Positions 8,470-32,845 of a stretch of DNA of 64,000 nt are shown here, one piece after another. The notes beneath the pieces are model-generated. The model did no database searches and was not told the origin of the DNA. It was given only the letters and a program-made list of their open reading frames with translations. The stretch is taken from NCBI GenBank assembly GCA_964560795.1, contig CAZLNX010000001.1:227-64226 (forward strand). The letters are read 5' to 3'. This stretch comes from an uncultured Anaerolineales bacterium (GTDB lineage Bacteria > Chloroflexota > Anaerolineae > Anaerolineales > UBA11858). Position numbers and translations under genes: made by a program. Numbering within the stretch: the stretch's first letter is position 1; every line of letters starts with the position of its first letter.

Positions 8470-8559
8470 AAGATATTCCCAATTTTTGTTATGAGGAAAG
8501 CAAGAACCCAGGAATTTGTATGCCCTTTCCTGATTTCCTGGCTTCCTTATATTATTTCT

Positions 8560-11677: not shown

Positions 11678-11753
11678 TCAACTTTCTCCTTAAATTTTTT
11701 GAGTGATGAAATGTATCCGAACAATATCAATAAAGTATAGGACTAATTTGGTC

Positions 11754-12875
11754 TTATATCATACCAGATAACAACGCCAGGACAACACCACCTGCAATCA
11801 CGCTACCCAATTGGCCAGCAGTATTTGCACCCATGGCGTGCATAAGCAAGAAATTATCAATATCGTATTCCTGCCCTACGCGTTGTACAACACGCGCCGA
11901 CATAGGAAACGCGCTGATACCAGCAGCCCCAATGAGAGGATTAAACTTACCTCCAGATAAAACGTACAGCAATTTCCCAAACAGAACGCCACCTGCCATA
12001 TCCAATACAAAGGCAAACAAACCCAAAATCAAAATATATAAAGTTTCCAGGCGAACAAAAGCGTCGCCAGTCATCGTAGAACCTACTGCCAGACCTAGAA
12101 ATATGGTCGTCACATTGGCAATTTCATTTTGAGCAGCATTGCTTAGGCGGTCCACAACTCCTGATTCACGTAATAGGTTCCCAAACATAATTGTTGCTAT
12201 CAACGGTGAGGCAACTGGCGCAATCAGAGAAACGAATATAGTTACCACTATCGGAAAGAGCACCCGCGTTGTTTTAGAAACTTCTCTTTCAGAATACGGC
12301 ATGCGAACTTTCCGTTCTGCATCGGTTGTCAGAAGGCGCATGATTGGTGGCTGAATAATTGGCACTAGCGACATGTAACTGTATGCCACCACAGTGATCG
12401 GCGCTAACATATCTGGCGCCAATCGACCCGCCACTAAGATCGCTGTGGGGCCATCCATCGTGCCGATCACACTAATAGAGCCAGCCTGTTTTATATCGAA
12501 ACCAAGAGCCAATGCTAACAACAGGGTGCCAAAAATCCCAATATGCCCGGCCGCCCCGAGCAAAGCCATCTTAGGATTTTCTAGCAACGGTCCAAAATCT
12601 GTCATTGCTCCTAATCCAATAAAGAGCAATAGAGGGAAAAGCTCGGTTTCAATTCCAATCCGATACAAAACACCCAAGAGACCATGCTCACCGGATATCC
12701 CCGTCAAAGGCAAATTGGTCAAGATTGCACCAAAACCAATGGGTAGCAGCAGCATCGGTTCATAATTTTTAGCAACGGCCAGGTAGATCAGCACACCCCC
12801 CAAAGCCATGATCACCAAATTCTTCCAGGTCAGGGCTAAAGGCGCTTGAAAAATGATTTCAGTAATATTGTCCAT
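11754..12875 (-). CDS. Na+-translocating decarboxylase beta subunit (OadB/MmdB/GcdB family)
   Basis: Polytopic membrane protein with the OAD_beta look. The track ORF extends to 12950, but ATG at 12875 (MDNITEIIFQ) follows the upstream gene's stop (12883) without overlap. Confidence 0.85.
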   Translation of the reverse strand: MDNITEIIFQAPLALTWKNLVIMALGGVLIYLAVAKNYEPMLLLPIGFGAILTNLPLTGISGEHGLLGVLYRIGIETELFPLLLFIGLGAMTDFGPLLENPKMALLGAAGHIGIFGTLLLALALGFDIKQAGSISVIGTMDGPTAILVAGRLAPDMLAPITVVAYSYMSLVPIIQPPIMRLLTTDAERKVRMPYSEREVSKTTRVLFPIVVTIFVSLIAPVASPLIATIMFGNLLRESGVVDRLSNAAQNEIANVTTIFLGLAVGSTMTGDAFVRLETLYILILGLFAFVLDMAGGVLFGKLLYVLSGGKFNPLIGAAGISAFPMSARVVQRVGQEYDIDNFLLMHAMGANTAGQLGSVIAGGVVLALLSGMI

Positions 12876-12882
12876 AAAGCCC

Positions 12883-13332
12883 CTACTCGTAGGTGAACAG
12901 CACTTCGCCGTAATCCACAGCCTGACCCACACTGACCTCAACAGTGGCAATTACCCCTTCGCGAGATGCATAGATCACGTTTTTCATCTTCATGGCATCG
13001 AGCACACAAAGCTCATCCCCTGCCCCCACAATCTGACCTTTCTGCGCATGTACTTCTACAATATCTCCGGGCATAGGCGATGTAACTACGTCTTCGCTAG
13101 AAGTGCTTGCCGAAGATATTTCAGGTTTTTTCACAACAGCAGCTGCCGCTGGCAATGGAGTTCGCTTTACTGCCTTGACCTGGGGTTTTTCAACATGACT
13201 GGATAGAACCACCTCATACGTTTTTCCATCAACAACAGCAATTATCGGAGATGCAGATAAATCCTCGATTTCGACTAAGAATTCCTGATCTTCTATTTTT
13301 ACTAAAACCCGTTGGCTTTTATCACTCATCAT
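12883..13332 (-). CDS. biotin carboxyl carrier subunit of the decarboxylase
   Basis: C-terminal biotinyl domain with LDAMKMKN (biotinylated Lys in the AMKM motif) and an Ala/Pro-rich linker. Start trimmed to ATGATG at 13332/13329, preceded by AAGGAG. Confidence 0.85.
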   Translation of the reverse strand: MMSDKSQRVLVKIEDQEFLVEIEDLSASPIIAVVDGKTYEVVLSSHVEKPQVKAVKRTPLPAAAAVVKKPEISSASTSSEDVVTSPMPGDIVEVHAQKGQIVGAGDELCVLDAMKMKNVIYASREGVIATVEVSVGQAVDYGEVLFTYE

Positions 13333-13633
13333 GGCTCCTTTGAACCCCGCTCTTGGGAGGCGGTGATTCAAGCAACGCACCCAAATTGGCAGTGTGTTTT
13401 CTTTCTCTTTGCAAAGAAGCAACCGAAACGGCAATACCGGCTGCTCTCATCCTCAAATCATCCCAATAAGGTGCTAAATCTTCTTGCGCATCTTCCGGTT
13501 CCGAGTTTTCCGTGGTTCTCACGCTGAACATCTCGCGCAAAACAACCATCACCAGTATCAACAAACCCAAAGAGGCAAAGGTGATCAATAAACCCAATAC
13601 ACTGAGTTGAAGCCCCTGTGTTAATTCACTCAT
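13322..13633 (-). CDS. small membrane anchor subunit (OadG/decarboxylase gamma/delta-like)
   Basis: 103 aa with a single N-terminal TM helix (LSVLGLLITFASLGLLILVMVVL). Position between the carboxyltransferase and BCCP genes is as in Na+-pump decarboxylase operons. Confidence 0.7.
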   Translation of the reverse strand: MSELTQGLQLSVLGLLITFASLGLLILVMVVLREMFSVRTTENSEPEDAQEDLAPYWDDLRMRAAGIAVSVASLQRERKHTANLGALLESPPPKSGVQRSHDE

Positions 13634-13643
13634 TGACTATCTC

Positions 13644-15200
13644 CTATAGCGGGATATTGCCGTGCTTTTTTGGACGCGTGGAAACTTGTTTGTCCTTGAG
13701 CAGTTCTAACGCGGCGATCAAACGCGGTCGGGTTTCTGACGGGATCAAAATCTCATCAATATGTCCACTGGCAGCCGAAGTATAGGGCTTAGAGAATTTC
13801 TCTTTGAATTCAGCCACGATCTCCTGGCGCGCTTCCTCAGGATTTTCTTCTTCCTTCAATTGCTTGGAATAAAGGATATTTACCGCTCCATCAGCTCCCA
13901 TCACGGCAACTTCAGCTGTCGGCCAGGCGAAGACCAGATCCGTGCGGATGTACTTGCTGCTCATGACGATATACGCCCCCCCATATGCCTTGCGGGTGAT
14001 CACAGCGATTTTGGGAACCGTCGCTTCTGAATAAGCATAGACGATCTTAGCCCCATGTCGGATGATACCGCCATGCTCCTGTTTGACACCCGGCATAAAC
14101 CCTGGCGTATCCACAAAGGTAAATATGGGGAAATTGAAAGCATCACAGAAGCGAATAAAACGGGCAATCTTATCCGACGCATCGATATCCAAAACACCGG
14201 CCACCGCCAATGGCTGGTTGGCAACAATTCCAACTGCGCGCCCGTGCAAACGGGCAAATCCAACGACAGCGTTAGGAGCAAAATTCTCATGGACAGGCAT
14301 AAAGCTGCCCAGGTCAAAAACTTTTTCGATAACATCGCGGATATCATAGGCTTCGCCAGGGTCAGCGGGGACGATGGTATCCAGGCTTTTATCTTGCCTC
14401 CAGGGGTCGTCCTTTGGGGTGGTTGCCGGCGGAGACTCTGCATTGCTCCCGGGCAGGTACCCAACCAATTTTCGGGCAATTTCAAGAGCGTGGGCTTCAT
14501 CAAGAGCAGCGAAATGAGCTACACCACTGACCCTACTGTGGACTTCCGTCCCACCCAAGGATTCCAGGTCAACCTTTTCACGAGTGACGGTTTCGATTAC
14601 CTTTGGCCCGGTGATGAACATATGGCTGGTATCCTGGGTCATGATCACAAAATCCGTCAGCCCCGGAGAATAAACCGAGCCACCCGCGCAGGGCCCCAAC
14701 ATCACACTGATCTGGGGGATCACGCCGCTGGCCTGGGTATTACGCCAGAACAATTCAGAAAAGGCAGCCAGGCTGTAGACACCTTCTTGAATACGGGCAC
14801 CGACAGAATCCATCAAACCAATGACCGGAACCCCAGAATCCATGGCCAGATCCAAGATTTTCGCTACTTTCTGACCGTGCACTTCTGAGAAGGAACCGCC
14901 CAGGACGGTAAAGTCTTGGGCATAAACACAAACCATACGCCCATCGATCTTACCGAAACCCACCACTACACTGTCTCCAGCGGTGCGCTTCTCGTCCATG
15001 CCAAAATCGCTGTGACGATGAGTCCAATAAGCGTCAACTTCAAGGAAACTACCTTCATCCAGCAATTGATGCACACGTTCGCGCGCCGTCTGTTTGCCCT
15101 TGGCGTGTTGCGCGTCGATACGTTTTTGGCCGCCACCTTTAGCAATCTTCTGGCGCGTTTCCTCTAGTTCATTTATCAAAGATTGGTGTTCTTCTGTCAA
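13644..15200 (-). CDS. acyl-CoA carboxyltransferase (methylmalonyl-CoA decarboxylase alpha / propionyl-CoA carboxylase beta family)
   Basis: 518 aa with two crotonase-like halves. Typical N-terminus (RIDAQHAKGKQTARERVHQLLDEGSF) and GGAYIVMSSK block. Confidence 0.9.
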   Translation of the reverse strand: MTEEHQSLINELEETRQKIAKGGGQKRIDAQHAKGKQTARERVHQLLDEGSFLEVDAYWTHRHSDFGMDEKRTAGDSVVVGFGKIDGRMVCVYAQDFTVLGGSFSEVHGQKVAKILDLAMDSGVPVIGLMDSVGARIQEGVYSLAAFSELFWRNTQASGVIPQISVMLGPCAGGSVYSPGLTDFVIMTQDTSHMFITGPKVIETVTREKVDLESLGGTEVHSRVSGVAHFAALDEAHALEIARKLVGYLPGSNAESPPATTPKDDPWRQDKSLDTIVPADPGEAYDIRDVIEKVFDLGSFMPVHENFAPNAVVGFARLHGRAVGIVANQPLAVAGVLDIDASDKIARFIRFCDAFNFPIFTFVDTPGFMPGVKQEHGGIIRHGAKIVYAYSEATVPKIAVITRKAYGGAYIVMSSKYIRTDLVFAWPTAEVAVMGADGAVNILYSKQLKEEENPEEARQEIVAEFKEKFSKPYTSAASGHIDEILIPSETRPRLIAALELLKDKQVSTRPKKHGNIPL

Positions 15201-15389: not shown

Positions 15390-15416
15390 TCGAAGCCCCC
15401 AAATAGGGGGCTTCGA
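15390..15416 (-). terminator. stem-loop, candidate intrinsic terminator after the CBS gene
   Basis: Perfect 11-bp stem TCGAAGCCCCC / GGGGGCTTCGA with loop AAATA. On the coding strand it is followed by ATTTAGGCTATTCTT, which is only moderately T-rich. Confidence 0.55.
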
Positions 15417-15525: not shown

Positions 15526-15972
15526 CTAGGTGGCAAAATCTGAGCCGAGGAGATAGTTTTCTAACCCTTTGATCGTGCTTTCGCGATCAGACAACATCGT
15601 ATCAGATACATCTCGAATCGAAACCATGCCGACAAATGTGTCATTATCTATCACGGGGAGATGACGAACGTGGTACTGGTTCATCAACACCATACATTGT
15701 TCCATCGATGTATCCAGATTCACTGTTATCATTTTCCGGGTCATGATTTCACGTACGAGGGTATCAGCTGCAGACATCCCCTTTACCTCACATTTACGCG
15801 AGTAATCCCTTTCGGTAAATATACCAATGACCCTTTCATTTTCAACCACCATCACTGAACCGATGTTGGCTTCAGCCATAACTTCGAGTGCTCGAAGTAC
15901 CGTTGCTGTTCCTGTTAATATATAGTTCTCACGGTTGTCTTTTTGCTCTATCAATTGTCCTACAGTTGCCAT
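15526..15972 (-). CDS. CBS-domain pair protein
   Basis: 148 aa with two CBS repeats (GSVMVVENERVIGIFTERD and RHLPVIDNDTFVGMVSIRD). Confidence 0.85.
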   Translation of the reverse strand: MATVGQLIEQKDNRENYILTGTATVLRALEVMAEANIGSVMVVENERVIGIFTERDYSRKCEVKGMSAADTLVREIMTRKMITVNLDTSMEQCMVLMNQYHVRHLPVIDNDTFVGMVSIRDVSDTMLSDRESTIKGLENYLLGSDFAT

Positions 15973-16013
15973 AATTCAACCTCCAAAATGCTTGAATGGG
16001 TAACCAGGATTCT

Positions 16014-16868
16014 CTAGGCATCTTCTTTGGGTTTATGATCGCGCCAGTAGCTGATATAGCGGGTACCATAGGTATCGCGTCCCATCAGCAGATCGGTCGC
16101 CCGAATGGTGCTGGCCAGCTTGATGGGATCAGTGATAGCACAGGTAGCGCCCTCGCCCATCGCCAGCGACAAGAATGCCTGATTGACCGTGTGTCGGTCT
16201 GGCAGGCCAAAAGATACGTTGCTAGCTCCCAAGTTGATGTTGACTCCGAATTCCTTCTTCAATAATTGAACCGTTTGCAGCGTCACTGCGGCAGCATTGC
16301 TATCGGCGCCTACGGTGAGCACCAACGGATCGATGACGATATCTTCGATACCAATGCCCAGTTTAGCAGCTCGCTCGATGATCTTCTCAGCAATGGCGAC
16401 GCGCGTTTCGGCATCATTGGGAATACCATCATCGTCCATGGTCAGTCCTATCACCGAAACACCATGTTCACCGACCACAGGCAAGACAGCATTTAGTGAT
16501 TTCTCTTCGCCATTGACAGAGTTCACCAAAGGTTTTCCTGGAAGTACAGCCAAGGCTGCTGCTAAGGCCTCATGATTGGCAGAATCCAGGCACAGGGGTG
16601 TATCGACGGATTCAGCGACGATCTTAGCAACCTCGGGCAGCACGGCCACTTCGTCAAGGCCGGGCACGCCAACGTTGACATCCAGAATATCCGCCCCGGC
16701 TTCGACCTGTTTGATCGCTAAGCCACGGACATATTCATAGTCGCCTTCTTTTATCTTTCCGGCCAAGATCTTTCGTCCAGTAGGATTAATCTTCTCCCCG
16801 ATAATCACAAAGGGGGCATCATAACTGATGGTTACTTCTTGTTTCTCGCTTTTCAATATGGTTTTCAT
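16014..16868 (-). CDS. pterin-binding methyltransferase (methyl-corrinoid:tetrahydrofolate, MtgA/AcsE/MtrH-like)
   Basis: 284 aa TIM-barrel pterin-binding domain. Blocks IIGEKINPTG, GADILDVNVG, LCLDS, NSVNGE, GASNVSFGLP. Confidence 0.85.
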   Translation of the reverse strand: MKTILKSEKQEVTISYDAPFVIIGEKINPTGRKILAGKIKEGDYEYVRGLAIKQVEAGADILDVNVGVPGLDEVAVLPEVAKIVAESVDTPLCLDSANHEALAAALAVLPGKPLVNSVNGEEKSLNAVLPVVGEHGVSVIGLTMDDDGIPNDAETRVAIAEKIIERAAKLGIGIEDIVIDPLVLTVGADSNAAAVTLQTVQLLKKEFGVNINLGASNVSFGLPDRHTVNQAFLSLAMGEGATCAITDPIKLASTIRATDLLMGRDTYGTRYISYWRDHKPKEDA

Positions 16869-16910
16869 GGTTTATTCCTTTCTTCTAAGTGTCGAATCTG
16901 CTGTGGGGGA

Positions 16911-18284
16911 TTAGAACGTTACACCAATTTGGATAAGTTCATCTTTGACTTCGTGATACATACCCAGCCATTCAGGCGTAGGTTGCAGGGTACTCAAATC
17001 ATATACCTCTTGGAAAGGCTTACCGATTGGCTGGGATGGCAAATCATCTTCATAGATCGCCAGAAGTTTCTTGACAATCTCATCGGCTTGTTCGCGGCTC
17101 ATCCCGGCGGCGGCATGGGCGACTTCGGCGCTGAAACGAGATTCCAGGCCGCTGCAGTGGCACGAGTTGGTGCCCGTGGCAGTCATGCATGCCTGGGGAA
17201 CAGTGAGACCAGAAGCCACCCCGGAGATGATGAAGGCGGCACATTCATACAGCAAAGATTTTGTGCCCGGTCCCGCGGCAGGTTTGCAGAGCGAAGCCGT
17301 CAGCATCTTGCTGTGTCGCGAGATGGCCTGAAAAGCCAGACTCTGCGCCCAAAGCGATTCGGGAGTGGCATCGCTGTGCAGGAAGGGGTGCGCCGAACTA
17401 ACGCTGATGGTGGTGCCCATGTAATTCTGATTGACCACGATCAAACCTGCTGCCAGGCCAATGACCACACCTTCAGCACCGCCCAAAAAACCGCCATAGA
17501 TGATATTCAAATATCCTTCCATGTGTGCACCAATGCGGGTGATGTGAGCCACTTTGGAAAGTAAATCATAATTGGTTTTGAATTCACTGGGTGCTGAAAC
17601 ATGGTGCCAATCGCTGGGGCGAACACCACCCCAGGAAGCAGCCGAAATCTGAGCCAGAGCTGTAGGAGAGATCTCAATACAGCCAATAGGCATACCCGGT
17701 CTGCCAGCCCGGTTGATGGTCTCGAAAGATAACTCCGTTTCGCGCCAACCGCCCAACACTTCCCATGGTGAAGCTGCTTTAATGGGATGGCCGTAGACGC
17801 GCTCGATGGTCGGATTCTCGATGACATCGATCAACGGCTCCTGAGCATAGCTGAGCATGATGGGCACGAACATATCTTCAGGCACAGGGACACCGAAGGG
17901 ACCTCCTACAAAGGCCGGCGCACTGGGGGATTCCGGCGTGCGAGCCTTGATCGTCACTGTATCATTGCCGGTTCCTAAGACTACTTCTCCCGGGCAACTA
18001 CTCAAACCCTGCAGGTATTCATCTTCTGTCCAGGTGATGCGCCGGTTGGTATCCTGACAGAACATACCTACTTCGACGGCGAATTCCAAGCCGGCCTGAA
18101 AGATGCGATCCGCCAGATCGTCATCGGCGGGCACGATGGTGGCACGATCAAACTTGATATCATATTTTTCAATTAACCGTTTGACCGTCGAGGTGATCAA
18201 TTTGGCTTCGAACTCTTTTTCGTCAATGATAGGGCCAGTTTCTGCCCTGTGAAGGATATCTAAGAGACGTCCACGATTTTTCAT
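16911..18284 (-). CDS. MttB-superfamily methyltransferase paralog 1 (non-Pyl; subfamily A)
   Basis: 457 aa, uninterrupted. Family blocks RAETGPIIDEKEFE, DDDLADRIFQAG, SDWHH, GPGTKSLLYE, SGLESRFSAEVAHA. Its ATG overlaps the TGA of the upstream Mo subunit (ATGA at 18281-18284). Confidence 0.85.
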   Translation of the reverse strand: MKNRGRLLDILHRAETGPIIDEKEFEAKLITSTVKRLIEKYDIKFDRATIVPADDDLADRIFQAGLEFAVEVGMFCQDTNRRITWTEDEYLQGLSSCPGEVVLGTGNDTVTIKARTPESPSAPAFVGGPFGVPVPEDMFVPIMLSYAQEPLIDVIENPTIERVYGHPIKAASPWEVLGGWRETELSFETINRAGRPGMPIGCIEISPTALAQISAASWGGVRPSDWHHVSAPSEFKTNYDLLSKVAHITRIGAHMEGYLNIIYGGFLGGAEGVVIGLAAGLIVVNQNYMGTTISVSSAHPFLHSDATPESLWAQSLAFQAISRHSKMLTASLCKPAAGPGTKSLLYECAAFIISGVASGLTVPQACMTATGTNSCHCSGLESRFSAEVAHAAAGMSREQADEIVKKLLAIYEDDLPSQPIGKPFQEVYDLSTLQPTPEWLGMYHEVKDELIQIGVTF

Positions 18285-20548
18285 TGTTTTTCTCCTTCAA
18301 TTGCGGCCAACACCCGTTCAGGGGTCAGCGGGATTTGGGTCATTCGTATTCCAATGGCATCAGAGACAGCATTGGCAATAGCAGGGGCGGTGGACATCAG
18401 CGAAGGCTCGCCAATACCAACCGCACCATGGGGGCCCAGAGGTTCCGGAATTTCGAGCAGCTTCGTGACTGTCTCTGGCGCATCCAACGAGGTTGGGATC
18501 AGAAAACTTTCCAGGGAATCGCTTAATGTGCGGCCGTCTTCCACGACCAGCTCTTCCATGAGCGAGTAGCCGGTGCCCATGGTGCAGGCTCCCAGCAACT
18601 GGCCGTAGGCGCCGCCATAATTGATGATGCGACCCACGTTCTGGACAGCGTAGATCTTTTCGACGACCACTTCGCCGGTTTCGATATCCACCAGCACCTG
18701 GGCGATCTGCGTTCCAAAGGCTGAGGGACCGACGCCGACATAATCGCTCTTCCCATATATCTCTTCGGGAAATTCCATGGCATAAAAGCCATCGGCATGC
18801 ATGGGGCGGTTGGCAAAGGTGGCCTTGGCCGCCAACTGGGGGACGGTGTAATTGAGCAGTTCTCCCTCGGCATACAAACGACCACCTTTCAGGGATAACA
18901 GGTCCATGGGGAGACCGGTTTCCTCGGCAGCAGTTTCTATCAAACTGTTGCGGATCACAGCTGAGCCCCTTAGTACTGCATTCCCGGAGACGAAAGTCTG
19001 ACGAGAGGCTGCGCTGGGTCCTGCATCCAGTGTTTTGTCTGTATCCGGGCCGATCACCCGGACAGAATTCAGATCCACGCCCAGGGTTTCGGCAGCTATA
19101 CTTGCCAGGACTGTGAAGACACCCTGGCCCATATCTACCGCGGCTGTGCGCAAGACCACTGTCCCGTCTGTAGCCATCTCAGCAATCACGCTGGCATTAT
19201 CCTGGCCTCTGCCCAGGCCGATGACAAACCAGGTCGATGACAAACCCCAACCGCGCCGCAAATTGGGCGCGGGCTGGCGTTCAACCTGATCACGCCCCTG
19301 CCAATCGGCCATCTTGGCGGCATCTTCCATGCCCACTTTGATGGCTTTCACTTCGCGGATTGTGGCGCCCATAGGGGTTGGCTGATCTTTTTCTATCGCA
19401 TTGCGCATCCGAACTTCCAGGGGGTCCAGACCCAGTTCTTTTGCCAGGGCATCCATCTGGCCTTCATAGGCCAGCGCCACCTGCGGGCCGCCAAAGCCGC
19501 GCATCGCCCCGCCGATGGGGTTATTGGTTCGCACACAAAAAGCTTCAATCCGAGCATTGGGTACAAAGTAAGGGCCAGTGGAAACAGATGCCCCAAACCC
19601 CATGATATAGCGGCCAGCATTTTCGTAGGGTCCGGTGTCTCCGATGGTCTCGATTTGAACGGCTGTGAGTTTCCCGTCGGATTGCGCCCCCAGGCGGTGC
19701 TTGACGATCACCGGCACACGCTTGACATGTGTCAGGATCGACTCTTCCCGGCTGCGCATCAGGCGTACCGGCTTTCCCGTCACCCGTGCCAGTAAGGCGG
19801 CATGGATCTGAACGTGGACTTCGTCCTTGGCACCGAATCCCCCACCCACAAACGGTGTGACTACACGCACGCTGTGCTCGGGAATATTCAAAGAACGGGC
19901 AATCTGCATGCGGTCTCGATGCGGGGCTTGATTCGAAGCATAAACAACCACCGTACCATCGAGGTCAATATAGGCCAGAGCACCTTCAGGCTCTAGAAAA
20001 GCGTGCTCGATCCATTGGGTCCGATAGGTATTCTCGATGATCACATCGGCGGTATCAAAGCCCGCATCCACATCTCCAATTTCGAACAGTGCGCTGGGGA
20101 TGACATTGTCATAACCGGGCAGCGCATCTGCAGCATCGGGGCTCATCGCTTCGACGGGATCAAAAATCCCTGGCAAAGGTTCATACTCCACCGCGACGGC
20201 ATCCAAGCCTGCCTGAGCCGCGTCTTCATCTTCAGCGGCCAATGCCACGATGGCATCGCCCAGGTAATTGACGCGATCGACAGCCAGCAGCGGCATATCG
20301 GCCTCGTGGTAAAGATAACTGTTCTCGCCAGGGATATCTGCATGAGTCAACACAGCTACAACGCCGGGCACGGCGCGCGCCGCCTCAACATCGATATTGA
20401 GAATGCGGGCGCAGGGATGAGCGCTGTACAAGAGCTTGCCGATCAGCATCCCGGGCATGTGGAGATCCTTGGTGTAGCGCGCCGCGCCGGTTAGCAGTTG
20501 CTGGTTTTGAATTGCAGGAGCAGGAGCACCAATGACATCATTGGACAT
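18281..20548 (-). CDS. xanthine dehydrogenase-family molybdopterin-binding large subunit
   Basis: 755 aa. Block PFVGGGFGAKDE and C-terminal GIGEPS active-site Glu context. Its start overlaps the end of the 2Fe-2S subunit by 11 nt. Confidence 0.9.
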   Translation of the reverse strand: MSNDVIGAPAPAIQNQQLLTGAARYTKDLHMPGMLIGKLLYSAHPCARILNIDVEAARAVPGVVAVLTHADIPGENSYLYHEADMPLLAVDRVNYLGDAIVALAAEDEDAAQAGLDAVAVEYEPLPGIFDPVEAMSPDAADALPGYDNVIPSALFEIGDVDAGFDTADVIIENTYRTQWIEHAFLEPEGALAYIDLDGTVVVYASNQAPHRDRMQIARSLNIPEHSVRVVTPFVGGGFGAKDEVHVQIHAALLARVTGKPVRLMRSREESILTHVKRVPVIVKHRLGAQSDGKLTAVQIETIGDTGPYENAGRYIMGFGASVSTGPYFVPNARIEAFCVRTNNPIGGAMRGFGGPQVALAYEGQMDALAKELGLDPLEVRMRNAIEKDQPTPMGATIREVKAIKVGMEDAAKMADWQGRDQVERQPAPNLRRGWGLSSTWFVIGLGRGQDNASVIAEMATDGTVVLRTAAVDMGQGVFTVLASIAAETLGVDLNSVRVIGPDTDKTLDAGPSAASRQTFVSGNAVLRGSAVIRNSLIETAAEETGLPMDLLSLKGGRLYAEGELLNYTVPQLAAKATFANRPMHADGFYAMEFPEEIYGKSDYVGVGPSAFGTQIAQVLVDIETGEVVVEKIYAVQNVGRIINYGGAYGQLLGACTMGTGYSLMEELVVEDGRTLSDSLESFLIPTSLDAPETVTKLLEIPEPLGPHGAVGIGEPSLMSTAPAIANAVSDAIGIRMTQIPLTPERVLAAIEGEKQ

Positions 20549-21041
20549 CGCTCACCTCCTGGATCATAGCAGCGGCATGCTTCACCGAATCGATTATCGG
20601 CGCATAACCCGTACAACGACATAAATTCCCGGCGATGGCCCGTTGAATCTCCTCACGGGTGGGGTCCGGTTTCTTTTGCAATAGTGCATAACTTGACAAC
20701 AACACCCCAGGGGTGCAGAAACCGCACTGCAAACCCCACTTCTCGGCGAAGGCTTGCTGCAAAACACCCAGCTCGCCATCGGGTGCCAGCCCTTCGACGG
20801 TTAGCAATTCCTTCCCATCTGCCTGGGGTGCCAGTACGAGACAGGAATTCACGGCCCTGCCATCCATGAGAACAACGCATGCGCCACAATCCCCCTGGCT
20901 GCAGCCATCCTTTGTTCCCGTTAATCCCAGATCTTCTCGTAAAAGGTGCAAAAGGGTCTGGTGAGGAGCAGTTGTTACCTGTTTTTGCTCTCCATTCACA
21001 GTAAATTGGATTTCTACGTCGGCCATTAATTTTTCCTTCAA
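20538..21041 (-). CDS. [2Fe-2S] small subunit of Mo hydroxylase
   Basis: 167 aa with CSQGDCGACVV and CRCTGY cysteine clusters. Confidence 0.9.
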   Translation of the reverse strand: MKEKLMADVEIQFTVNGEQKQVTTAPHQTLLHLLREDLGLTGTKDGCSQGDCGACVVLMDGRAVNSCLVLAPQADGKELLTVEGLAPDGELGVLQQAFAEKWGLQCGFCTPGVLLSSYALLQKKPDPTREEIQRAIAGNLCRCTGYAPIIDSVKHAAAMIQEVSDVQ

Positions 21042-21051
21042 ATTAGCAGGA

Positions 21052-22434
21052 TTACTTTAACAACATTTTTGCACGCTGGTTATGCTTTTCAACGTGCGTC
21101 CCAAGATCGGTGGTTTGCAGGCAGCCCTCTTTAACGATGAACTTACCGCCAATTACGGTGTAATCCGCTGTCACTGGCGCACAAAAGACCAACGCTGCCA
21201 GGGGATCATGCAGCGCTCCCGTGAATGCCAGCTGATCCAGATTGACAGCAAAGAAATCAGCGCATTTACCAACTTCCAGGGAACCAATATCATCACGCCC
21301 TAACACCGCCGCGCTCCCACGGGTGGCTACACGCAGGGCCTGACGGGCAGTCATCAGCGGAGACGATTCATCTCCGGATAATGAAGCCCCTTCCAATCCG
21401 GCAGCCAAACGTGAAAGCAGCATTGCCTGACGAACTTCTCCAAGCATATGCGAGCCATCGTTGCTGGCAGAGCCATCCACACCCAGCCCCACCTTGACAC
21501 CCACCGTGAGCATCTTGAGCAGCGGTGCGATCCCCGAAGCCAAGCGCATATTCGAGCTCGGGCAGTGGGCCACCCCACAGCCCGTTTGGGCATATTGAGC
21601 AATTTCGGCGTCATTGACGTGCACCGAATGCGCAAACCAGACATCCGAGCCGATCCAATCGACCTGCTCCATATAGGCCACCGGCCGGTGACCGAACAAC
21701 TCAATGCAGAACTGCTCCTCGTCCTCGGTCTCCGCCAGGTGCGTATGCAGCTGCACACCATATTCTCTAGCCAAGGCAGCGCTGGCCTTCATCAAGTCAC
21801 CGGTGATGCTGAACGGGGAACAAGGCGCCAGCACAACCTGCGTCAGGGAGCCCGGGTTGGGGTCATGATACTGTTCGATCAGACGCTGGCTGTCTTTCAG
21901 GATGAAATCCTCGTCTTCCACCACGCTGTCCGGGGGCAGGCCGCCATCACTCTCGCCGCGGCTCATCGAACCCCGGCTGGCGTGCAGGCGCACGCCGATG
22001 TCCAACCCGGCCTGGATCTGGTCGTCCAACTTCGATCCATTGGGGAAGATATAGAGATGATCCGAAGCCGTTGTACACCCCGAGAGTGCCAATTCCGCCA
22101 GCGCTGTGATGGTCGAAACATAGATGTCTTCGGACTGCATGCGCGCCCAGATCGGATAGAGCGTTACCAGCCAGTTGAACAGGTTGGCATCCTGCGCGGC
22201 AGGCACCGCCCGGGTCAGCGTCTGGTAGAAGTGGTGATGGGTATTGATCAGGCCTGGCAGCACCACATGGCCTGACAGGTCGAGCACCTCATCGGCTGTT
22301 TCGGGCAGTTCTGATGAAACACCTACCTGCTCGATGAAGCCATCCCGAATGAACAAACCCCCATCACCAATTTCGCGTTCCTTGTCATCGAAGGTGGCCA
22401 GCAGGGTTGCATTTCGAACGAGTAAGGTTGACAT
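21052..22434 (-). CDS. amidohydrolase, 8-oxoguanine/isoxanthopterin deaminase-like
   Basis: 460 aa. Blocks PGLINTHHHFYQTLTR, LYPIWAR, SGCTTASDH, LAPCSPFS, HTHLAE, CPSSNMRLASG, GVDGSASND. From memory these match the 8-oxoguanine deaminase / hydroxyatrazine hydrolase clade. Confidence 0.8.
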   Translation of the reverse strand: MSTLLVRNATLLATFDDKEREIGDGGLFIRDGFIEQVGVSSELPETADEVLDLSGHVVLPGLINTHHHFYQTLTRAVPAAQDANLFNWLVTLYPIWARMQSEDIYVSTITALAELALSGCTTASDHLYIFPNGSKLDDQIQAGLDIGVRLHASRGSMSRGESDGGLPPDSVVEDEDFILKDSQRLIEQYHDPNPGSLTQVVLAPCSPFSITGDLMKASAALAREYGVQLHTHLAETEDEEQFCIELFGHRPVAYMEQVDWIGSDVWFAHSVHVNDAEIAQYAQTGCGVAHCPSSNMRLASGIAPLLKMLTVGVKVGLGVDGSASNDGSHMLGEVRQAMLLSRLAAGLEGASLSGDESSPLMTARQALRVATRGSAAVLGRDDIGSLEVGKCADFFAVNLDQLAFTGALHDPLAALVFCAPVTADYTVIGGKFIVKEGCLQTTDLGTHVEKHNQRAKMLLK

Positions 22435-22479
22435 GAAAATCTCCTAACAATGCAACTTACATCATCACATTCCAGATGT

Positions 22480-23862
22480 TTATAACGGTTTCCAGGGCTT
22501 GACCTGCAAGGTGCCGTTGATCAGTTCTTTCGAGATCACATTGTGGTGGCTCATGACCCTTGGCAGGTCAATTGTGGTGAGTTGGCCCTGATCTATGACT
22601 AATCGTCCGTTGATCACCGAGTAATTCACGTTGACCGGGTGACAAAAGATCAGGGAAGCGGTCAGATCAGCCGAAGTGCCGATAAACCCAATCTGATCCA
22701 GGTCATAGGCCACAAAATCTGCCGCCATGCCGGGAGCCAGATATCCAATATCATCACGGCCCAGCACCTTTGCCCCACCCCGGGTGGCCATCTCCAGCGC
22801 TTCGCGCGCTTTGAGGGCATCCGGTCCACCAAGCACCCGCTGCAGCAGCATGGCTTGTCGCGCCTCCGCCAGCAGATGTCCGGCGTCATTGGCTGCCGCG
22901 CCATCGACGCCCAGTCCGGTGGGTACGCCCGCATCCAGGAACTTACGGATCGGTGCAATACCCGCGGCCGTGCGCATATTGGAATTGGGGCAGTGGCAGA
23001 TGCCGGTTTGTGTGCGGGCAAATTGCTCGATCTCTTGATCGTCCAGCATCACACAATGTGCATGCCAGACATCATCCCCAATCCAACCCACATCCTCGGC
23101 ATATTCTCCCGGACGCATACCAAAGGTCTCCTGGCTGTACTTGATATCTTCGGGGTTTTCCGCCAGGTGGGTGTGCATCCGCACACCGTAACTGCGGGCC
23201 AATTTGGATGATTCGCGCATCAAGTCCTGGCTGACGCTGAACGGAGAACAGGGAGCCAGGCCGACTCGCATCATGGCATAGCGATCTGGATCATGGTAAC
23301 TTTCGATCAATCGGCGGGAATCTTTTAGAATTTCAGCCTCATCTTCCACGACCCGATCCGGAGGCAAACCGCCTTTGCTCTCCCCGATGCTCATACTGCC
23401 GCGCATGGCATGGAAGCGCATGCCGATCCTCTCGGCCGCTTCGATTTCATCATCCAATCGGCAATCATTGGGGTAAATATAGAGGTGGTCGCTGGCCGTA
23501 GTACAGCCGGAAAGCAGCAATTCAGCAAGTCCGGTCAAGGTGGAGTAATAGACCCCCTCGGAGGTCAGCCCAGCCCAGATGGGGTATAAGGTTTGCAGCC
23601 AGACAAACAGCGTAGAATCCTGGCACTTTGGGATCACGCGCGTCAAACCCTGGTAGAGATGATGATGGGTATTGACCAATCCGGGAATGACGATGTGGTT
23701 TTCCAGATCGAGCACACGATCCGCACTGTCAGGCAGCGCGCTCGTTGGTCCGACTTGCTCGATTACACCATCACGCACAAACAGGCCCCCACCGGGGATC
23801 TCGCGCCGCTCGTCATCCATAGTGGCGAGCATGGCCGCGTTTTTGACTAAGATTGTGCTCAT
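22480..23862 (-). CDS. amidohydrolase, 8-oxoguanine/isoxanthopterin deaminase-like (tandem paralog)
   Basis: 460 aa, colinear with 21052..22434 and carrying the same blocks (PGLVNTHHHLYQGLTR, LYPIWAG, CPNSNMRTAAG, GVDGAAAND). Confidence 0.8.
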   Translation of the reverse strand: MSTILVKNAAMLATMDDERREIPGGGLFVRDGVIEQVGPTSALPDSADRVLDLENHIVIPGLVNTHHHLYQGLTRVIPKCQDSTLFVWLQTLYPIWAGLTSEGVYYSTLTGLAELLLSGCTTASDHLYIYPNDCRLDDEIEAAERIGMRFHAMRGSMSIGESKGGLPPDRVVEDEAEILKDSRRLIESYHDPDRYAMMRVGLAPCSPFSVSQDLMRESSKLARSYGVRMHTHLAENPEDIKYSQETFGMRPGEYAEDVGWIGDDVWHAHCVMLDDQEIEQFARTQTGICHCPNSNMRTAAGIAPIRKFLDAGVPTGLGVDGAAANDAGHLLAEARQAMLLQRVLGGPDALKAREALEMATRGGAKVLGRDDIGYLAPGMAADFVAYDLDQIGFIGTSADLTASLIFCHPVNVNYSVINGRLVIDQGQLTTIDLPRVMSHHNVISKELINGTLQVKPWKPL

Positions 23863-24051
23863 TCCTGCAATCCTTCACTAAATTTGTTACTATACATCTG
23901 AATAATAGCCACAGATAAATTGGATATATTGGATGTGAAACAAAAAATCTGTATTGATCTTATTCATCTGTGGTCAATTATTAGCCAAAATAGTTCCATA
24001 TTGGTCTTCCAACGCTCAATGTACGGTAGAGAATGCAATACCAACTTTGAT

Positions 24052-25425
24052 TCAGTTAAGGCCTAGACCCATTCCAACCAGCTCATTTTTGACTTCGTCA
24101 TACATTCCCTGCCATTCAGGCTTGGGCTGGATTCTCTCGACATCATAGACCTCGTCAAAAGGCTTGCCAATCGGTTTACGCTCCAACACGGGTTCATAGT
24201 GACCGAGGAGTTGCTTCACGATTTCGTCCGCCTGGCATCTTTCCATGCCCAGCGCGGCGCGGGAAACTTCTCCGCAAATCTTTGAATCCAACCCGCTGGC
24301 ATGCTTGTGATTGACACCACTGGCAGACATACTGGACTCCACCACCGATATGCCGGAAGCCACATTTGCGATGGTCAAGGCAGCGTTTTCATAGAGAATC
24401 GACTTGGTTCCGGGCCCGCTGGCAGGTTTGTTCATCGAAGCCAGGATAAGACCTGTATTCCTGGACAGCGCCTGGAATGCTAGGCTCTGCGCCCATACTT
24501 GGGGCGTTGTAGTGCCGCAGTGCAAGTTGGGGTGCGCGGAGCTCACACTGAGGGTTGTGCCCATATAGTTTTGGTTCAGTATGATGGGTCCTGCAGTCAA
24601 GCCAATCGCCATGCCCTCTGGCCCGCCAAAGAACCCGCCGTAAATGACATTCAGGTAGGCTTCGATATTGCCGCCAATTCGGGTTGTGTGGGCTACTTTT
24701 GAGAGCAGTTCGTAATTTGTCTTGAACTCGCTGATCACCGAACAGTGATGCCAATCGCTAGGGCTGAAAGCGCCATAGGATGGGGAGATCTGCCCGGCGG
24801 CCGTAGAAGATATGGTCACACAAGCAATCCCCATCCCCGGTCTACCAGCCATGTGTACAACTTGCTTTGCCAGATCGGCTTCTTTCCAACCGCCAAGAAT
24901 TTCCCACGGGGAGCCTGCCTTGATCGGCATACCGTGGACAGAGAGTATCGATGCCGGTTCAAGCAGGTCAATGACGGGCTCCTGGGCATAGCTGAGCATC
25001 ATGGGGATAAACAATTCATCGGGAACCGATACACCCACAGCGCCTCCCGAAACCACCACGGGGCTGTCATCGTCGGGCACACGCGCCCTCAGTGTAACAG
25101 CATCGTATCCCTCACCGATCACGGCCTCGCTAGGACAAAAATGAATGCCCTGCTCATACTCCTGGCGAGACCAGGCAATTCTACGGCTGGTATCCTGGCA
25201 GAACATACCTACTTCAACGGCAAATTCCATCCCAGCTTCGAACAGGCGGTCCGCCATATCATCGTCGCTGGAAACGATCGTATTTCTATCAAAGTGGATG
25301 CCATAGTCCTTAATCAGCCTTTTTACCGTTGAGCGGATAAGCTGAGCATCAAACTCTTTTTCTTCGATCAACGGCCCAGTTTCAGCCCGGCGCAGGATTT
25401 CTGGCAGTCTGCCTCTGTGCTTCAT
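24052..25425 (-). CDS. MttB-superfamily methyltransferase paralog 2 (subfamily A)
   Basis: The track ORF runs to 25470. ATG at 25425 (MKHRGRLPEILRRAETGP) aligns with the N-termini of paralogs 1, 6 and 8 and has AAGGAAG upstream. Confidence 0.85.
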   Translation of the reverse strand: MKHRGRLPEILRRAETGPLIEEKEFDAQLIRSTVKRLIKDYGIHFDRNTIVSSDDDMADRLFEAGMEFAVEVGMFCQDTSRRIAWSRQEYEQGIHFCPSEAVIGEGYDAVTLRARVPDDDSPVVVSGGAVGVSVPDELFIPMMLSYAQEPVIDLLEPASILSVHGMPIKAGSPWEILGGWKEADLAKQVVHMAGRPGMGIACVTISSTAAGQISPSYGAFSPSDWHHCSVISEFKTNYELLSKVAHTTRIGGNIEAYLNVIYGGFFGGPEGMAIGLTAGPIILNQNYMGTTLSVSSAHPNLHCGTTTPQVWAQSLAFQALSRNTGLILASMNKPASGPGTKSILYENAALTIANVASGISVVESSMSASGVNHKHASGLDSKICGEVSRAALGMERCQADEIVKQLLGHYEPVLERKPIGKPFDEVYDVERIQPKPEWQGMYDEVKNELVGMGLGLN

Positions 25426-25548
25426 AAATTCTTCCTTTTTTTCAAGTGACTGCAATCGGCGAGAGGCCAAACGTATCGCCTGGCCTGATCGCCTATTGCA
25501 ATTTTCGTATCATGTTAGCTTTATCAATTATTGATAATGTGATCTTTC

Positions 25549-26937
25549 CTACAGCGGCATACCTAAGTCAATGGCTTCTTGCTTGACTTCATCATACATG
25601 GCATGCCACTCAGGTTTGGCTTCGAATTTTTCAAGATCATAGACATCGGTGACAATCTTGCCAACATCTGGGGTCTTGATGGCGTCTTCATATTTGGGCA
25701 ATATCACCTTGGCAATTTCGTTGACTTTCTCTAACGACATCCCCGAGGCTGCACGGGCAACCTCAGCCACCCATTTGCATTCCAAAGGCGACAGATAATC
25801 ATCCAATTTACCGCCAGCAGAGCGCGGGCCGGTAGACAATGACACACCGGATGCAGAAAGCGTCGCCTGCCCTACCAAGGTTTCATACAGCAAGGTCTTT
25901 GTGCCGGGACCAGAAACCTGGTTGGCGATGCCCTGGGTAAGGATACTGGTATTGCGGCTCAACGCTTGATGGACAACCGACAATGCCCAGATACCTTCCC
26001 GATTGACGTTGGAAAGGTAGCGGATATCATAAAGCTCACCACCGCCTACATCAGCCAGCAAAATAGGATACTGCAATAATCCTGCAGCAATACTCGACAA
26101 TGCCGCGCCTTCGGGTGGGCCGGGCATACCACCGATCATCCCTGGTGAACCGGCAAAGATTATCCCGCCCACATTCAACGTGTGCACCACTTTATGCAGC
26201 GTCTGATAGTTGACCTTCAACTCCGAAGGATAAAGAATTAATGACAAGTCTGTCGTAGGCAGCGCGCCAGCGATACCGTATCCGCCAAACTGGCCGTACT
26301 CGGTTACCGCCGAGATCTGCCCCACGCCGCCCATACCCGGTCGGCCAACTTTCGCCCGAATTTCGACATGCATCTTGGCTTGCTCAAAACCCACCAGGGT
26401 TTCTGAGGGCGCGTCGGGGATGACGTCGATGCCATGGATCGATTTCAGTGAGCCACCTTCCAGTAGATCGACTTCTTTCTGGCGGGCAATCCCTTCGGTC
26501 ACCAGCGGCCATATATCTTCAGACATGGTGATGCCCAGCGAGGCGATCATCTTCGTGGGATAGGGGTCTGAAGGCGTGCGCGCTTTGATGACCGAGGCAT
26601 CCTCCCCATAGCCCACGGTGATTTCGGACGGCGCGGCTTTGATGGCGGCATCCAGTTCCTCTTCAGAGACCTTGATAATGCGGTCGGTGGTCTCACACAA
26701 CATACCTAATTCCAGCGCGAGTTCATAGCCCGCTTTGAAAAAGCGATCCGCCAATTCACTATCCTGGTTGACAGGATTCCCCTGATCGCAGGTTTTCGCA
26801 AGATCATATTTGTTTAGCTTTTCGCGCACGGCCTTCGGAATGCGCTTGACATCCCATTCTTTGACGGTGCAGTATTCGCCGTTTTGTGAACGGTCTAAAA
26901 TTTTGATGATTTCCGGCTTATTCATTATTCTCTCCAA
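25549..26937 (-). CDS. MttB-superfamily methyltransferase paralog 3 (divergent)
   Basis: 462 aa. Blocks ELADRFFKAGYELA, GPGTKTLLYE, SPLECKWVAEVARA. Starts 3 nt after the stop of the corrinoid protein gene. Confidence 0.8.
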   Translation of the reverse strand: MERIMNKPEIIKILDRSQNGEYCTVKEWDVKRIPKAVREKLNKYDLAKTCDQGNPVNQDSELADRFFKAGYELALELGMLCETTDRIIKVSEEELDAAIKAAPSEITVGYGEDASVIKARTPSDPYPTKMIASLGITMSEDIWPLVTEGIARQKEVDLLEGGSLKSIHGIDVIPDAPSETLVGFEQAKMHVEIRAKVGRPGMGGVGQISAVTEYGQFGGYGIAGALPTTDLSLILYPSELKVNYQTLHKVVHTLNVGGIIFAGSPGMIGGMPGPPEGAALSSIAAGLLQYPILLADVGGGELYDIRYLSNVNREGIWALSVVHQALSRNTSILTQGIANQVSGPGTKTLLYETLVGQATLSASGVSLSTGPRSAGGKLDDYLSPLECKWVAEVARAASGMSLEKVNEIAKVILPKYEDAIKTPDVGKIVTDVYDLEKFEAKPEWHAMYDEVKQEAIDLGMPL

Positions 26938-26940
26938 GAA

Positions 26941-27639
26941 TTAAGTTAATGCGCCCAGCACTAGGGGTTTGTCAAAGGGTGGCTTGGCTTCACCGCTCAT
27001 CACCTGACGGGTCAGTTCGGCAGCATCGCCGGCATCGCGGCCGTAGCCATCGGCGCCGATATCGGCAGCCCATTCGGGGGTCACCGGGCCGCCGCCTACG
27101 ATGACATAGAATTTCTCACGATTGCCCGAATCCACCAGGGTCTTGAGGATTTGGCTGAATAGAGGCTGGGTGGTAGACAGCAATGTCGAGATGGCAACCA
27201 CATCGGCCTTTTCGTCGATGGCAGCGCGCACAAAATCCTTGGGGGTCACATCGGTGCCCAGATCTTTGACTTTGAAGCCAGTAGCCATCAAGTAGGCGGC
27301 GACAATATTCTTACCGATATCGTGCATGTCGCCTTGAATGGTGCCGATCACGACGGTGCCACCGGCGGAGGCATCCAGATCATCGACCGAAATATGCGGC
27401 ACAATCACGTCCGAGGCCGCCCGGGCAGCATCGCCGATCATGATCAATTCTGGCAGGAAGAGGTCACCATCCTGGAAAGCTTTGCCGATATCTTCCATGG
27501 GCTCGTTGATGGCCTGCTTGATCAGCTTTGAGGGGTCCAGGCCTGCCTCGATAGCAGCCTTGGCCTTGAGAGGGGCGGCTTCTTCGTCGCCATCTACAAT
27601 CACTTGCCTTAAGGCATCAATCAATTCTTGGTTTGTCAT
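26941..27639 (-). CDS. corrinoid (B12-binding) methyl-carrier protein 1
   Basis: Helical cap region plus Rossmann B12 domain with GDMHDIGKNIV (DxHxxG) and IVGGG. The track ORF starts at TTG 27780. ATG at 27639 (MTNQELIDAL), preceded by GGAG, gives the usual length of about 230 aa. Confidence 0.85.
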   Translation of the reverse strand: MTNQELIDALRQVIVDGDEEAAPLKAKAAIEAGLDPSKLIKQAINEPMEDIGKAFQDGDLFLPELIMIGDAARAASDVIVPHISVDDLDASAGGTVVIGTIQGDMHDIGKNIVAAYLMATGFKVKDLGTDVTPKDFVRAAIDEKADVVAISTLLSTTQPLFSQILKTLVDSGNREKFYVIVGGGPVTPEWAADIGADGYGRDAGDAAELTRQVMSGEAKPPFDKPLVLGALT

Positions 27640-29314: not shown

Positions 29315-29330
29315 GATCACCTTTACACAC

Positions 29331-32836: not shown

Positions 32837-32845
32837 AAACTCTCC

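Follow-up and report, generated by a model that had tools for sequence, protein, structure and literature searches.

A molybdenum hydroxylase gene overlaps the gene of a pyrrolysine-free MtmB-family methyltransferase in an Anaerolineales island with a predicted role in the catabolism of N-methylated bases

A string of seven minus-strand genes (15526-23862) is the subject of this report. It lies in a 64-kb window, by which we mean the whole stretch of DNA that was analysed, and this DNA is almost certainly a metagenome contig whose source population belongs to the uncultured Anaerolineales (Chloroflexota) of anoxic water columns. The string encodes two amidohydrolases (A1 and A2), the iron-sulfur and molybdopterin subunits of a hydroxylase of the xanthine dehydrogenase (XDH) family (FeS1 and Mo1), a substrate:corrinoid methyltransferase (MT1) of the MtmB family (MtmB1), a methylcorrinoid:tetrahydrofolate methyltransferase (MT2) and a protein with a pair of CBS domains. 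Judged by its genes, the locus holds a complete MT1-corrinoid protein-MT2 system, predicted to deliver methyl groups to tetrahydrofolate, that is genetically joined to a molybdenum (Mo) hydroxylase. We propose, at a probability of roughly one half, that the string is the last module of an island of ~60 kb for the anaerobic catabolism of N-methylated N-heteroaromatic bases, likeliest methylpurines and perhaps pyrimidines. A preliminary description of this DNA had suggested that a purine-type hydroxylation and deamination route and a corrinoid methyl-transfer route are expressed as one unit. Conservation of the Mo1-MtmB1 junction supports this suggestion, and the two routes appear built to be made together; the naming of the methyltransferase did not hold, and what was said of the corrinoid protein and of FAD applies to the given coordinates only.

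All seven open reading frames (ORFs) were found exactly where they had been described, and the Pfam and NCBIfam models bear out the domain calls for both amidohydrolases, the 2Fe-2S subunit, the Mo subunit, the pterin-binding methyltransferase and the CBS pair. The string opens with A1, an amidohydrolase of the 8-oxoguanine-deaminase type (22480-23862, 460 aa), followed by its paralog A2 (21052-22434, 460 aa), the small subunit FeS1 with two [2Fe-2S] clusters (20538-21041; Pfam Fer2 and Fer2_2), Mo1 (18281-20548, 755 aa; Pfam hammerhead and MoCoBD_1/2), MtmB1 (16911-18284, 457 aa), the pterin-binding MT2 (16014-16868, 284 aa) and the stand-alone CBS-pair protein (15526-15972, two Pfam CBS domains). 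The distances between successive genes, from A1 to the CBS gene, measure 45, 10, -11, -4, 42 and 41 nt, in agreement with the spacing reported earlier. FeS1 and Mo1 overlap by 11 nt, with an AGGAGG site ahead. The stop codon of Mo1 and the start codon of MtmB1 share an ATGA at 18281-18284, which reads ...GAAGGAGAAAAACAATGAAAAAT, and a GGAG Shine-Dalgarno sequence lies 7-8 nt ahead of the MtmB1 start. Beyond the CBS gene, a GC-rich hairpin on the minus strand (15390-15416, 10-11-bp stem) folds stably (-25.3 kcal/mol, z = -5.9), equally good folds arising in 0 of 200 shuffled sequences; it is probably the terminator of the gene string.

The central question is whether the overlap between Mo1 and MtmB1 is kept elsewhere. 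We collected related loci (numbered L) from species-representative genomes, JGI metagenomes and exact-protein look-ups, and annotated them against the proteins of the window; the junction count covers MtmB1 orthologs at least 78% identical for which upstream DNA was available. The preliminary description had allowed that the junction might be absent from all related genomes. It is not: a Mo1 ortholog (66-90% identical) lies directly upstream of MtmB1 in all 15 loci, and the two genes overlap in 13 of them. The overlap is 4 nt in eight loci (L014, L019, L021, L023, L024, L025, L027 and L069), 8 nt in four (L012, L022, L026 and L065) and 1 nt in L010; in L011 and L020 a gap of ~90 nt separates the genes. 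Moreover, this adjacency spans at least five operon layouts in which all other neighbours are rearranged. An MtmB5-like gene splits FeS1 from Mo1 in two loci (L012, 5673-11374; L022, 1673-7374), and an ortholog of Mo2, a second Mo subunit of the island, sits directly ahead of FeS1-Mo1-MtmB1 in L027. An apparent 1,135-aa Mo1::MtmB1 fusion ORF in L015, which would have counted as Rosetta-stone evidence, proved to be false: the scaffold has a gap there, and it is a run of N that joins the genes.

The same ensemble of genes recurs at greater distance. In L009 (Mo1 69%, MtmB1 62% identical) the pair is not adjacent, and both genes lie in one cluster with genes for the flavin adenine dinucleotide (FAD) subunit, an FeS subunit, an amidohydrolase, a Bmp-type ATP-binding cassette (ABC) transporter and MT2. 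Two megabase contigs (L071 and L072) with Mo1 homologs at 57-59% identity carry the string MtmB, two amidohydrolases, FAD, FeS, Mo, amidohydrolase, corrinoid protein and MtmB, adjoining a Bmp ABC system, and the ensemble is also present in an Acidimicrobiia metagenome-assembled genome (L016). Genes were counted in 25 related metagenome loci, each 5 kb or longer: 21 have at least two MtmB genes, 18 a corrinoid protein, 17 a Bmp-type transporter and 13 XDH-family genes, and 23 have a transporter, an XDH-family gene, an amidohydrolase or more than one of these.

The methyltransferase at this junction is not the MttB paralog that it had been called. The ORF at 16911-18284 matches PF05369, the MtmB family, with 338 bits (residues 8-454 on profile positions 4-449 of 450), and gives no match to PF06253, the MttB family (Pfam, E <= 1e-3). 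Its alignment with the solved MtmB of Methanosarcina barkeri (1l2q) has an E-value of 1.6e-71 over residues 9-457. The reading frame is unbroken by an in-frame stop, and the pyrrolysine of the M. barkeri enzyme (Pyl202) is aligned to Gly. MtmB1 thus belongs to the MtmB and not the MttB family and lacks pyrrolysine, and therefore a different known biochemistry applies. A monomethylamine methyltransferase proper is likewise ruled out, there being no in-frame UAG and a Gly at position 202. A genuine PF06253 gene does occur in a relative, L008, unlike MtmB1.

MtmB1 is far from alone. Eleven full-length pyrrolysine-free MtmB paralogs, mutually 30-62% identical, lie on the minus strand of the window; their ORFs begin at 16911, 24052, 25549, 35540, 40759, 45881, 47327, 48735, 51068, 60113 and 62216 and together span 16911-63640. 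The MtmB family forms ~1,170 clusters at 50% identity among 1.84 billion representative proteins, and because the family is so small, eleven divergent members on one contig, all of them with nucleobase enzymes in their surroundings, are a notable concentration. Starting with MtmB1, the residues in the Pyl202 column are G, A, V, G, G, G, C, S, M, E and G, and the small residues in MtmB1 and most of its paralogs would leave room for a bulkier substrate. No tRNA genes, and hence no tRNA-Pyl, were found in the window.

Two parts of a three-component methyl-transfer system had been recognized before, and both are confirmed: MtmB1 is the MT1, and MT2 scores above the cutoff of NF005719 (299 bits versus 259). 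MT2 also matches PF00809 with 101 bits, and its best PDB matches are the MT2 of Desulfitobacterium hafniense (4o0q and 4o1e), then MeTr (2e7f). Because MT2 is pterin-binding, the predicted methyl acceptor is tetrahydrofolate and not coenzyme M. The operon had been said to have no corrinoid protein of its own, which is correct within 15526-23862 but not for the module: three genes upstream on the same strand lies Cor1 (26941-27780), which has B12-binding and B12-binding_2 domains and the DxHxxG motif. It is separated from A1 by MtmB3 (25549-26937) and MtmB2 (24052-25470), and in L014 and L015 Cor1-MtmB3 stands directly ahead of FeS1-Mo1-MtmB1. Counting Cor1, which lies outside the coordinates of the string, the system of MT1, corrinoid protein and MT2 is complete. 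Cor4 (52594-53226), another corrinoid protein of the island, lacks the canonical DxHxxG cobalt-ligand motif and has DIHDIA instead, whereas Cor1-3 have DxHDIG.

Mo1 has the features of an XDH-family Mo hydroxylase: domains that bind the molybdenum cofactor (Moco), the catalytic Glu, the Gln and a partner with two [2Fe-2S] clusters. All 117 homologs have the catalytic Glu (equivalent to E1261) and the Gln767 equivalent, and at the Glu802 position Mo1 has an acidic 'KDE'. Assignment of Mo1 as a canonical xanthine dehydrogenase is ruled out by sub-cutoff model scores and by active-site residues, both detailed below. Because its catalytic residues are kept, its Arg/Phe site is changed and its scores are sub-cutoff, we therefore predict that Mo1 is an active hydroxylase of some N-heteroaromatic compound but no canonical xanthine dehydrogenase.

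The hydroxylase had also been described as FAD-less. This is right for the gene string, which holds no FAD-subunit gene (15526-23862), and the arrangement is conserved in the close clade: no FAD gene is adjacent to FeS1-Mo1 in L010, L012, L014, L019, L022, L025, L027, L065 or L069. It need not extend to the enzyme, since an FAD-subunit gene, the only one of the island, lies 14 kb upstream (34652-35521) beside FeS2, and FAD-FeS-Mo operons hold the more distant Mo1 orthologs of L009, L071 and L072. Because these distant orthologs have FAD-FeS-Mo, the FAD-less arrangement is derived, although it holds throughout the clade down to 66% identity.

Nature appears to have coupled a Mo subunit to a methyltransferase a second time, and independently, in this island. 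A further hydroxylase and methyltransferase module (27908-35521, minus strand) encodes the FAD subunit (34652-35521), FeS2, Cor2, a YdcZ-like membrane protein, Mo2, an MT1 of the URO-D superfamily and the amidohydrolase A3; the genes for Cor2 and the YdcZ-like protein sit between those for FeS2 and Mo2. Mo2 (30560-32836, minus strand) is 54% identical to Mo1, and its gene shares an ATGA at 30560-30563 with that of the URO-D protein (29331-30563, minus strand, 410 aa). The only solved relative of the latter is CdmB, the substrate-activating MT1 of a chloromethane system (PMC13222342), to which it has low similarity confined to its C-terminal half (E 9e-33). So two paralogous hydroxylases would each be translationally coupled to substrate:corrinoid methyltransferases, and the two methyltransferases come from unrelated families.

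The two deaminases are assigned by model score and by identity to a solved enzyme. Both exceed the cutoff of 532 bits of NF006055 (8-oxoguanine deaminase), A1 with 694 and A2 with 669 bits, and over their full length they are 64% (A1, E 3e-194) and 55% (A2) identical to the 8-oxoguanine deaminase of PDB entry 7ww2; to one another they are 58% identical. A COG0402 amidohydrolase accompanies every layout of the operon. However, A1 and A2 are not part of the conserved core, because the amidohydrolase of the relatives is a different, DadD-like one, which in L021-L025 comes after MtmB1 and replaces the 8-oxoguanine-deaminase pair.

From these observations we infer a substrate class and, likewise, an order of steps and a possible physical complex. 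The Bmp-type ABC system would import the base. MtmB1 would transfer its N-methyl group to Co(I) of Cor1, and the pterin-binding MT2 would hand the methyl group on to tetrahydrofolate. The Mo/FeS enzyme would hydroxylate the ring, amidohydrolases of the 8-oxoguanine-deaminase type would deaminate it, and the products would feed an anaerobic purine breakdown of the SsnA/YgeY type. In the lineage of the window the module would handle a guanine-type compound, with C8 hydroxylation by Mo1, deamination by A1 and A2 and demethylation by MtmB1, and the MtmB paralogs would differ from one another in the methylated base or position that they serve. The Mo1/MtmB1 overlap would secure joint production of hydroxylase and methyltransferase because, in this proposal, both act in succession on the same scaffold. 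Two orders are conceivable. Hydroxylation and deamination might come first, which is chemically attractive because the ring nitrogen, as in methylurates, would then leave more readily when Co(I) attacks the methyl group; demethylation first would suit cationic N-methyl purines, which are chemically like the quaternary amines used by MtqB. More tentatively, we suggest that pyrrolysine-free MtmB enzymes include a large unrecognized group of nucleobase N-demethylases, and that in these Anaerolineales a Mo/FeS hydroxylase and its coupled MtmB might act as a unit, possibly a complex, in which ring oxidation activates the N-methyl purine so that its methyl group can pass to cob(I)alamin and then to tetrahydrofolate.

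A number of observations weigh against a pathway for N-methylated bases. The sequence itself names no methylated compound. The position of the purine-binding Arg880 (R880 in the bovine enzyme, R310 in that of R. capsulatus) is taken by Phe in Mo1 and by Arg in 0 of 117 homologs; of the two stacking Phe residues, the F914 equivalent is kept and the F1009 equivalent is Leu. Mo1 falls under every NCBIfam equivalog cutoff (pucD 528 versus 784, XdhA 504 versus 780, xdhB 353 versus 850), and among solved structures nicotinate dehydrogenase and 4-hydroxybenzoyl-CoA reductase come closest to it. No fusion of a Mo subunit with MtmB was seen: the top 150 representatives of the MtmB family are all 483 aa or shorter, and PF05369 turned up in no Mo1 homolog. 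In L008, L028 and L029, MtmB1-like genes of 74-77% identity are not beside a Mo subunit; a GntR gene flanks them on one side and the Bmp transporter on the other, and a more distant XDH-family enzyme is encoded downstream. In L070 a Mo1 homolog at 64% identity has no MtmB nearby, and the 8-oxoguanine-deaminase pair occurs only in the closest lineage, other relatives having the DadD-like amidohydrolase instead. A tblastn search with the RACo activase of L007 found none in the window, and no purine, cobalamin, Moco or tetrahydrofolate riboswitch was found in the whole window with Rfam, at the gathering threshold or at E <= 0.5.

We weighed four other explanations and consider them less probable mainly because none explains the conserved coupling of Mo subunit to MT1 in two paralogous pairs. 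The hydroxylase and deaminases might act on ordinary purines and the MtmB enzymes on ordinary methylated amines (quaternary amines, choline, methylamines), the two routes sharing their place and their regulation for no other reason than that both feed the tetrahydrofolate one-carbon pool of a fermenting anaerobe. Indeed, the sole characterized non-pyrrolysine MtmB takes tetramethylammonium and choline (PMC13044021), MT2 passes methyl groups to tetrahydrofolate, purine degradation genes of the SsnA/YgeY type are present within the island, and the L070 homolog of Mo1 manages without MtmB. We nevertheless think this unlikely, because it leaves unexplained why the Mo stop and the methyltransferase start overlap in 13 of 15 loci, why a second Mo paralog is coupled in like manner to an unrelated MT1 family, and why corrinoid and MtmB genes lie between those of FeS and Mo subunits. 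Moreover, the linked transporter is of the Bmp type and related to a guanine binder, not of a betaine or choline type, and the divergence of the eleven paralogs (30-62% identity) speaks for many different substrates. The same diversity counts against a relay in which amidohydrolases free methylamine from, for example, N6-methyladenine or N2-methylguanine and MtmB homologs then demethylate it without pyrrolysine, since a single small substrate needs no eleven divergent paralogs. Alkylamine-releasing enzymes do exist in the amidohydrolase superfamily, TRZ/ATZ models and triazine hydrolases being the next-best matches here; an amidohydrolase is present in every operon layout, and small methylamine activity has been reported for MtqB (PMC13044021). 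But in true MtmB it is pyrrolysine that activates methylamine, and these homologs have Gly or another small residue in its place; the conserved tight coupling joins MtmB to Mo and not to an amidohydrolase, and A1 is 64% identical to an enzyme that frees ammonia from 8-oxoguanine. We regard a methylamine relay as quite unlikely.

Alternatively, the FAD-less Mo/FeS heterodimer might be a redox helper that oxidizes a heterocycle and sends low-potential electrons through its 2Fe-2S clusters to re-reduce the Co(II) corrinoid protein. The missing FAD gene beside FeS1-Mo1 in close relatives, the lack of a RACo-type activase in the window and the interleaving of corrinoid genes with those of hydroxylase subunits would all fit. 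However, a standard RACo activase follows MT2 in L007, purine- and urate-type couples are in general too weakly reducing for Co(II)/Co(I) without ATP, the more distant orthologous clusters retain the FAD subunit, and Mo1 still has the catalytic residues that a normal hydroxylase needs, all of which makes such a helper highly improbable. The ATGA may also be no more than a sign of dense packing, with no special tie between the products; four-base overlaps are the commonest class of overlap in bacteria, and the island is tightly packed on one strand. Yet, counted from ORF coordinates, exact 4-nt overlaps occur at only three of ~40 same-strand junctions in the window (Mo1/MtmB1, Mo2/URO-D methyltransferase and ABC ATPase/permease), two of which join a Mo subunit to an MT1, and the Mo1-MtmB1 adjacency outlasts rearrangement of every other neighbour. 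Compaction alone has very little probability in our view and is already disfavoured by the synteny. The coupled catabolism of N-methylated bases is the reading we prefer.

How do these genes compare with known systems? A close parallel in its components is MtqB/MtqC/MtqA of Methanococcoides (2026), which gave the first function for any non-pyrrolysine MtmB, tetramethylammonium and choline demethylation (PMC13044021). Both systems comprise a pyrrolysine-free full-length PF05369 protein, a B12-binding corrinoid protein and a second methyltransferase. MtqB demethylates positively charged N-methyl compounds, and ~1,000 other non-pyrrolysine MtmB proteins were left with 'unknown function' in that study (PMC13044021). 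By contrast, MT2 of the window is pterin-binding, with tetrahydrofolate and not coenzyme M as predicted acceptor, the host is bacterial, and the genes are interleaved with those of a Mo hydroxylase, nucleobase deaminases and a Bmp-type transporter.

The chain of MT1, corrinoid protein, pterin-binding MT2 and methyl-tetrahydrofolate is that of the MttB-superfamily systems (MtgB/MtgC/MtgA of D. hafniense; MtcB, MtpB and MtyB of Eubacterium limosum), which likewise use pyrrolysine-free relatives of a methanogen methylamine methyltransferase, with many paralogs per genome. Their MT1, however, is of the unrelated PF06253/COG5598 family, whereas that of the window is of PF05369. We know of no hydroxylase or deaminase partners of those systems. 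With xanthine and nicotinate dehydrogenases, Mo1 shares the hammerhead and MoCoBD_1/2 domains, the separate subunit with two [2Fe-2S] clusters, the invariant Glu and Gln and the acidic Glu802 position; it departs from xanthine dehydrogenase in the operon without an FAD gene, the Phe at the Arg880 equivalent, the exchange of one stacking Phe for Leu and the sub-cutoff scores. Caffeine dehydrogenase presumably belongs with these XDH-family hydroxylases of N-heteroaromatics. To our knowledge, translational coupling to a corrinoid methyltransferase has been described for no XDH-family member. A1 and A2 resemble 8-oxoguanine deaminases (PDB 7ww2 and 3hpa) in sequence, but they are tandem paralogs inside a methyl-transfer operon. 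The URO-D superfamily MT1 of the neighbouring module recalls the CdmBCA and O-demethylase systems (PMC13222342), although the Mo2-coupled protein is similar to CdmB only weakly.

What appears to be new, then, is a corrinoid three-component system with an unprecedented hydroxylase and deaminase partnership and a predicted new substrate class. The conserved coupling to a Mo hydroxylase supplies a concrete substrate hypothesis for a whole branch of the MtmB family. If it is true, N-methylated heteroaromatic bases join the substrates of B12-dependent methylotrophy, and an XDH-family enzyme is for the first time found built into a corrinoid methyl-transfer operon. Such a pathway would do without oxygen what AlkB- and Ndm-type demethylases do oxidatively, and anaerobes could use it to live on methyl groups taken from methylxanthines or from modified bases of nucleic acids. 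The enzymes that anaerobic N-demethylation of methylpurines still lacks would be provided, and abundant uncultured Chloroflexi of anoxic waters would have a new means of drawing carbon, nitrogen and reducing power out of the debris of nucleic acids. A 2026 preprint describes anaerobic N-demethylation of caffeine in sediments, with no enzyme assigned. In the open-access literature we found no description that links MtmB or corrinoid proteins to xanthine dehydrogenase, methylated purines, 7-methylguanine or caffeine, in Anaerolineae or elsewhere, an absence that is no proof.

The limits of the transcription unit may differ from those given earlier. An AT-rich spacer of 189 nt (23863-24051, minus strand) separates MtmB2 from A1 and contains an inverted repeat with 17-nt arms (23909-23925 and 23957-23973) and a perfect 12-nt core, CCACAGATRAAT. 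L010 and L019, the closest relatives, have a spacer of only 21-26 nt, and because of this the transcription unit may begin further upstream than A1, the start given in the preliminary description. The 189-nt spacer may serve as an operator or an internal promoter, or it may have arisen as a small insertion. The inverted repeat was also considered as a shared operator, which is ruled out since the motif is found nowhere else in the window or island. Matches to promoter and terminator consensus sequences between 15 and 34.5 kb are as many as in shuffled sequence, and neither support nor refute internal signals. At the far end of the string the CBS-pair gene is not kept in relatives, being absent from L014, L019, L022 and others.

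The string is part of one large island of ~60 kb: from ~4 to 64 kb of the window nearly all genes lie on the minus strand. Besides the 11 MtmB genes, the island has four B12-binding corrinoid proteins, XdhC and three XDH-family Mo enzymes (Mo1; Mo2 with FAD and FeS2; and a fused FeS-Mo protein). Its seven amidohydrolases are two of the 8-oxoguanine-deaminase type, one DadD-like, SsnA and three CodA-like, and it also encodes a CDA-fold deaminase, YgeY, a Mer-like LLM oxidoreductase, a flavin mononucleotide (FMN) reductase, two GntR/UTRA regulators and the Bmp/PnrA-type ABC importer. MtmB4-9, Cor3, Cor4, SsnA, YgeY, the Mer-like oxidoreductase, the CodA-like A5 and A6 and a GntR regulator occupy 35540-53226 (minus strand). 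The importer (54036-58924, minus strand) comprises a substrate-binding protein, a duplicated ATPase and two permeases; the closest solved relative of its binding protein is AtzT (6pi5), which co-purifies with guanine (PMC6834077). Further upstream, a GntR/UTRA regulator, MtmB10, the FMN reductase and MtmB11 extend over 58986-63640 (minus strand).

SsnA (478 bits versus a cutoff of 444) and YgeY (344 versus 321), both within 37050-40631, are markers of the anaerobic purine and selenium-linked locus of the Escherichia coli type. They adjoin the luciferase-like oxidoreductase, whose best models are F420-dependent methylenetetrahydromethanopterin reductases (Mer); this enzyme could be a substitute for methylenetetrahydrofolate reductase, oxidizing harvested methyl groups. 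The low-coordinate end of the island (4091-9828) holds XdhC (4091-5119, a Moco-insertion chaperone), the CDA-fold deaminase, the fused FeS+Mo protein and a CodA-like amidohydrolase. The fused protein, of 922 aa, is closest to the model for selenium-dependent xanthine dehydrogenase, with 691 bits versus a cutoff of 830. Plus-strand genes for a two-component system and a nucleotide cyclase (435-4094) set the boundary of the island.

Right after the hairpin, 10796-15200 encodes a Na+-translocating biotin decarboxylase (carboxyltransferase, OAD gamma, biotin carrier and OAD beta) and a PF04199 cyclase/formamidase-like protein; these genes may serve to conserve energy from a dicarboxylate product of ring cleavage. 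In L007 (GCA_964621835.1, 12330-14841) MT2 is followed by a 232-aa protein without a family match and then by the RACo-type activase, and neither of these two has a homolog in the window. Finally, what had seemed an 809-nt gap between the transporter and Cor4 contains an ORF for a 136-aa membrane protein (53413-53823), which resembles the small EamA-type half-transporters that adjoin the module in L007.

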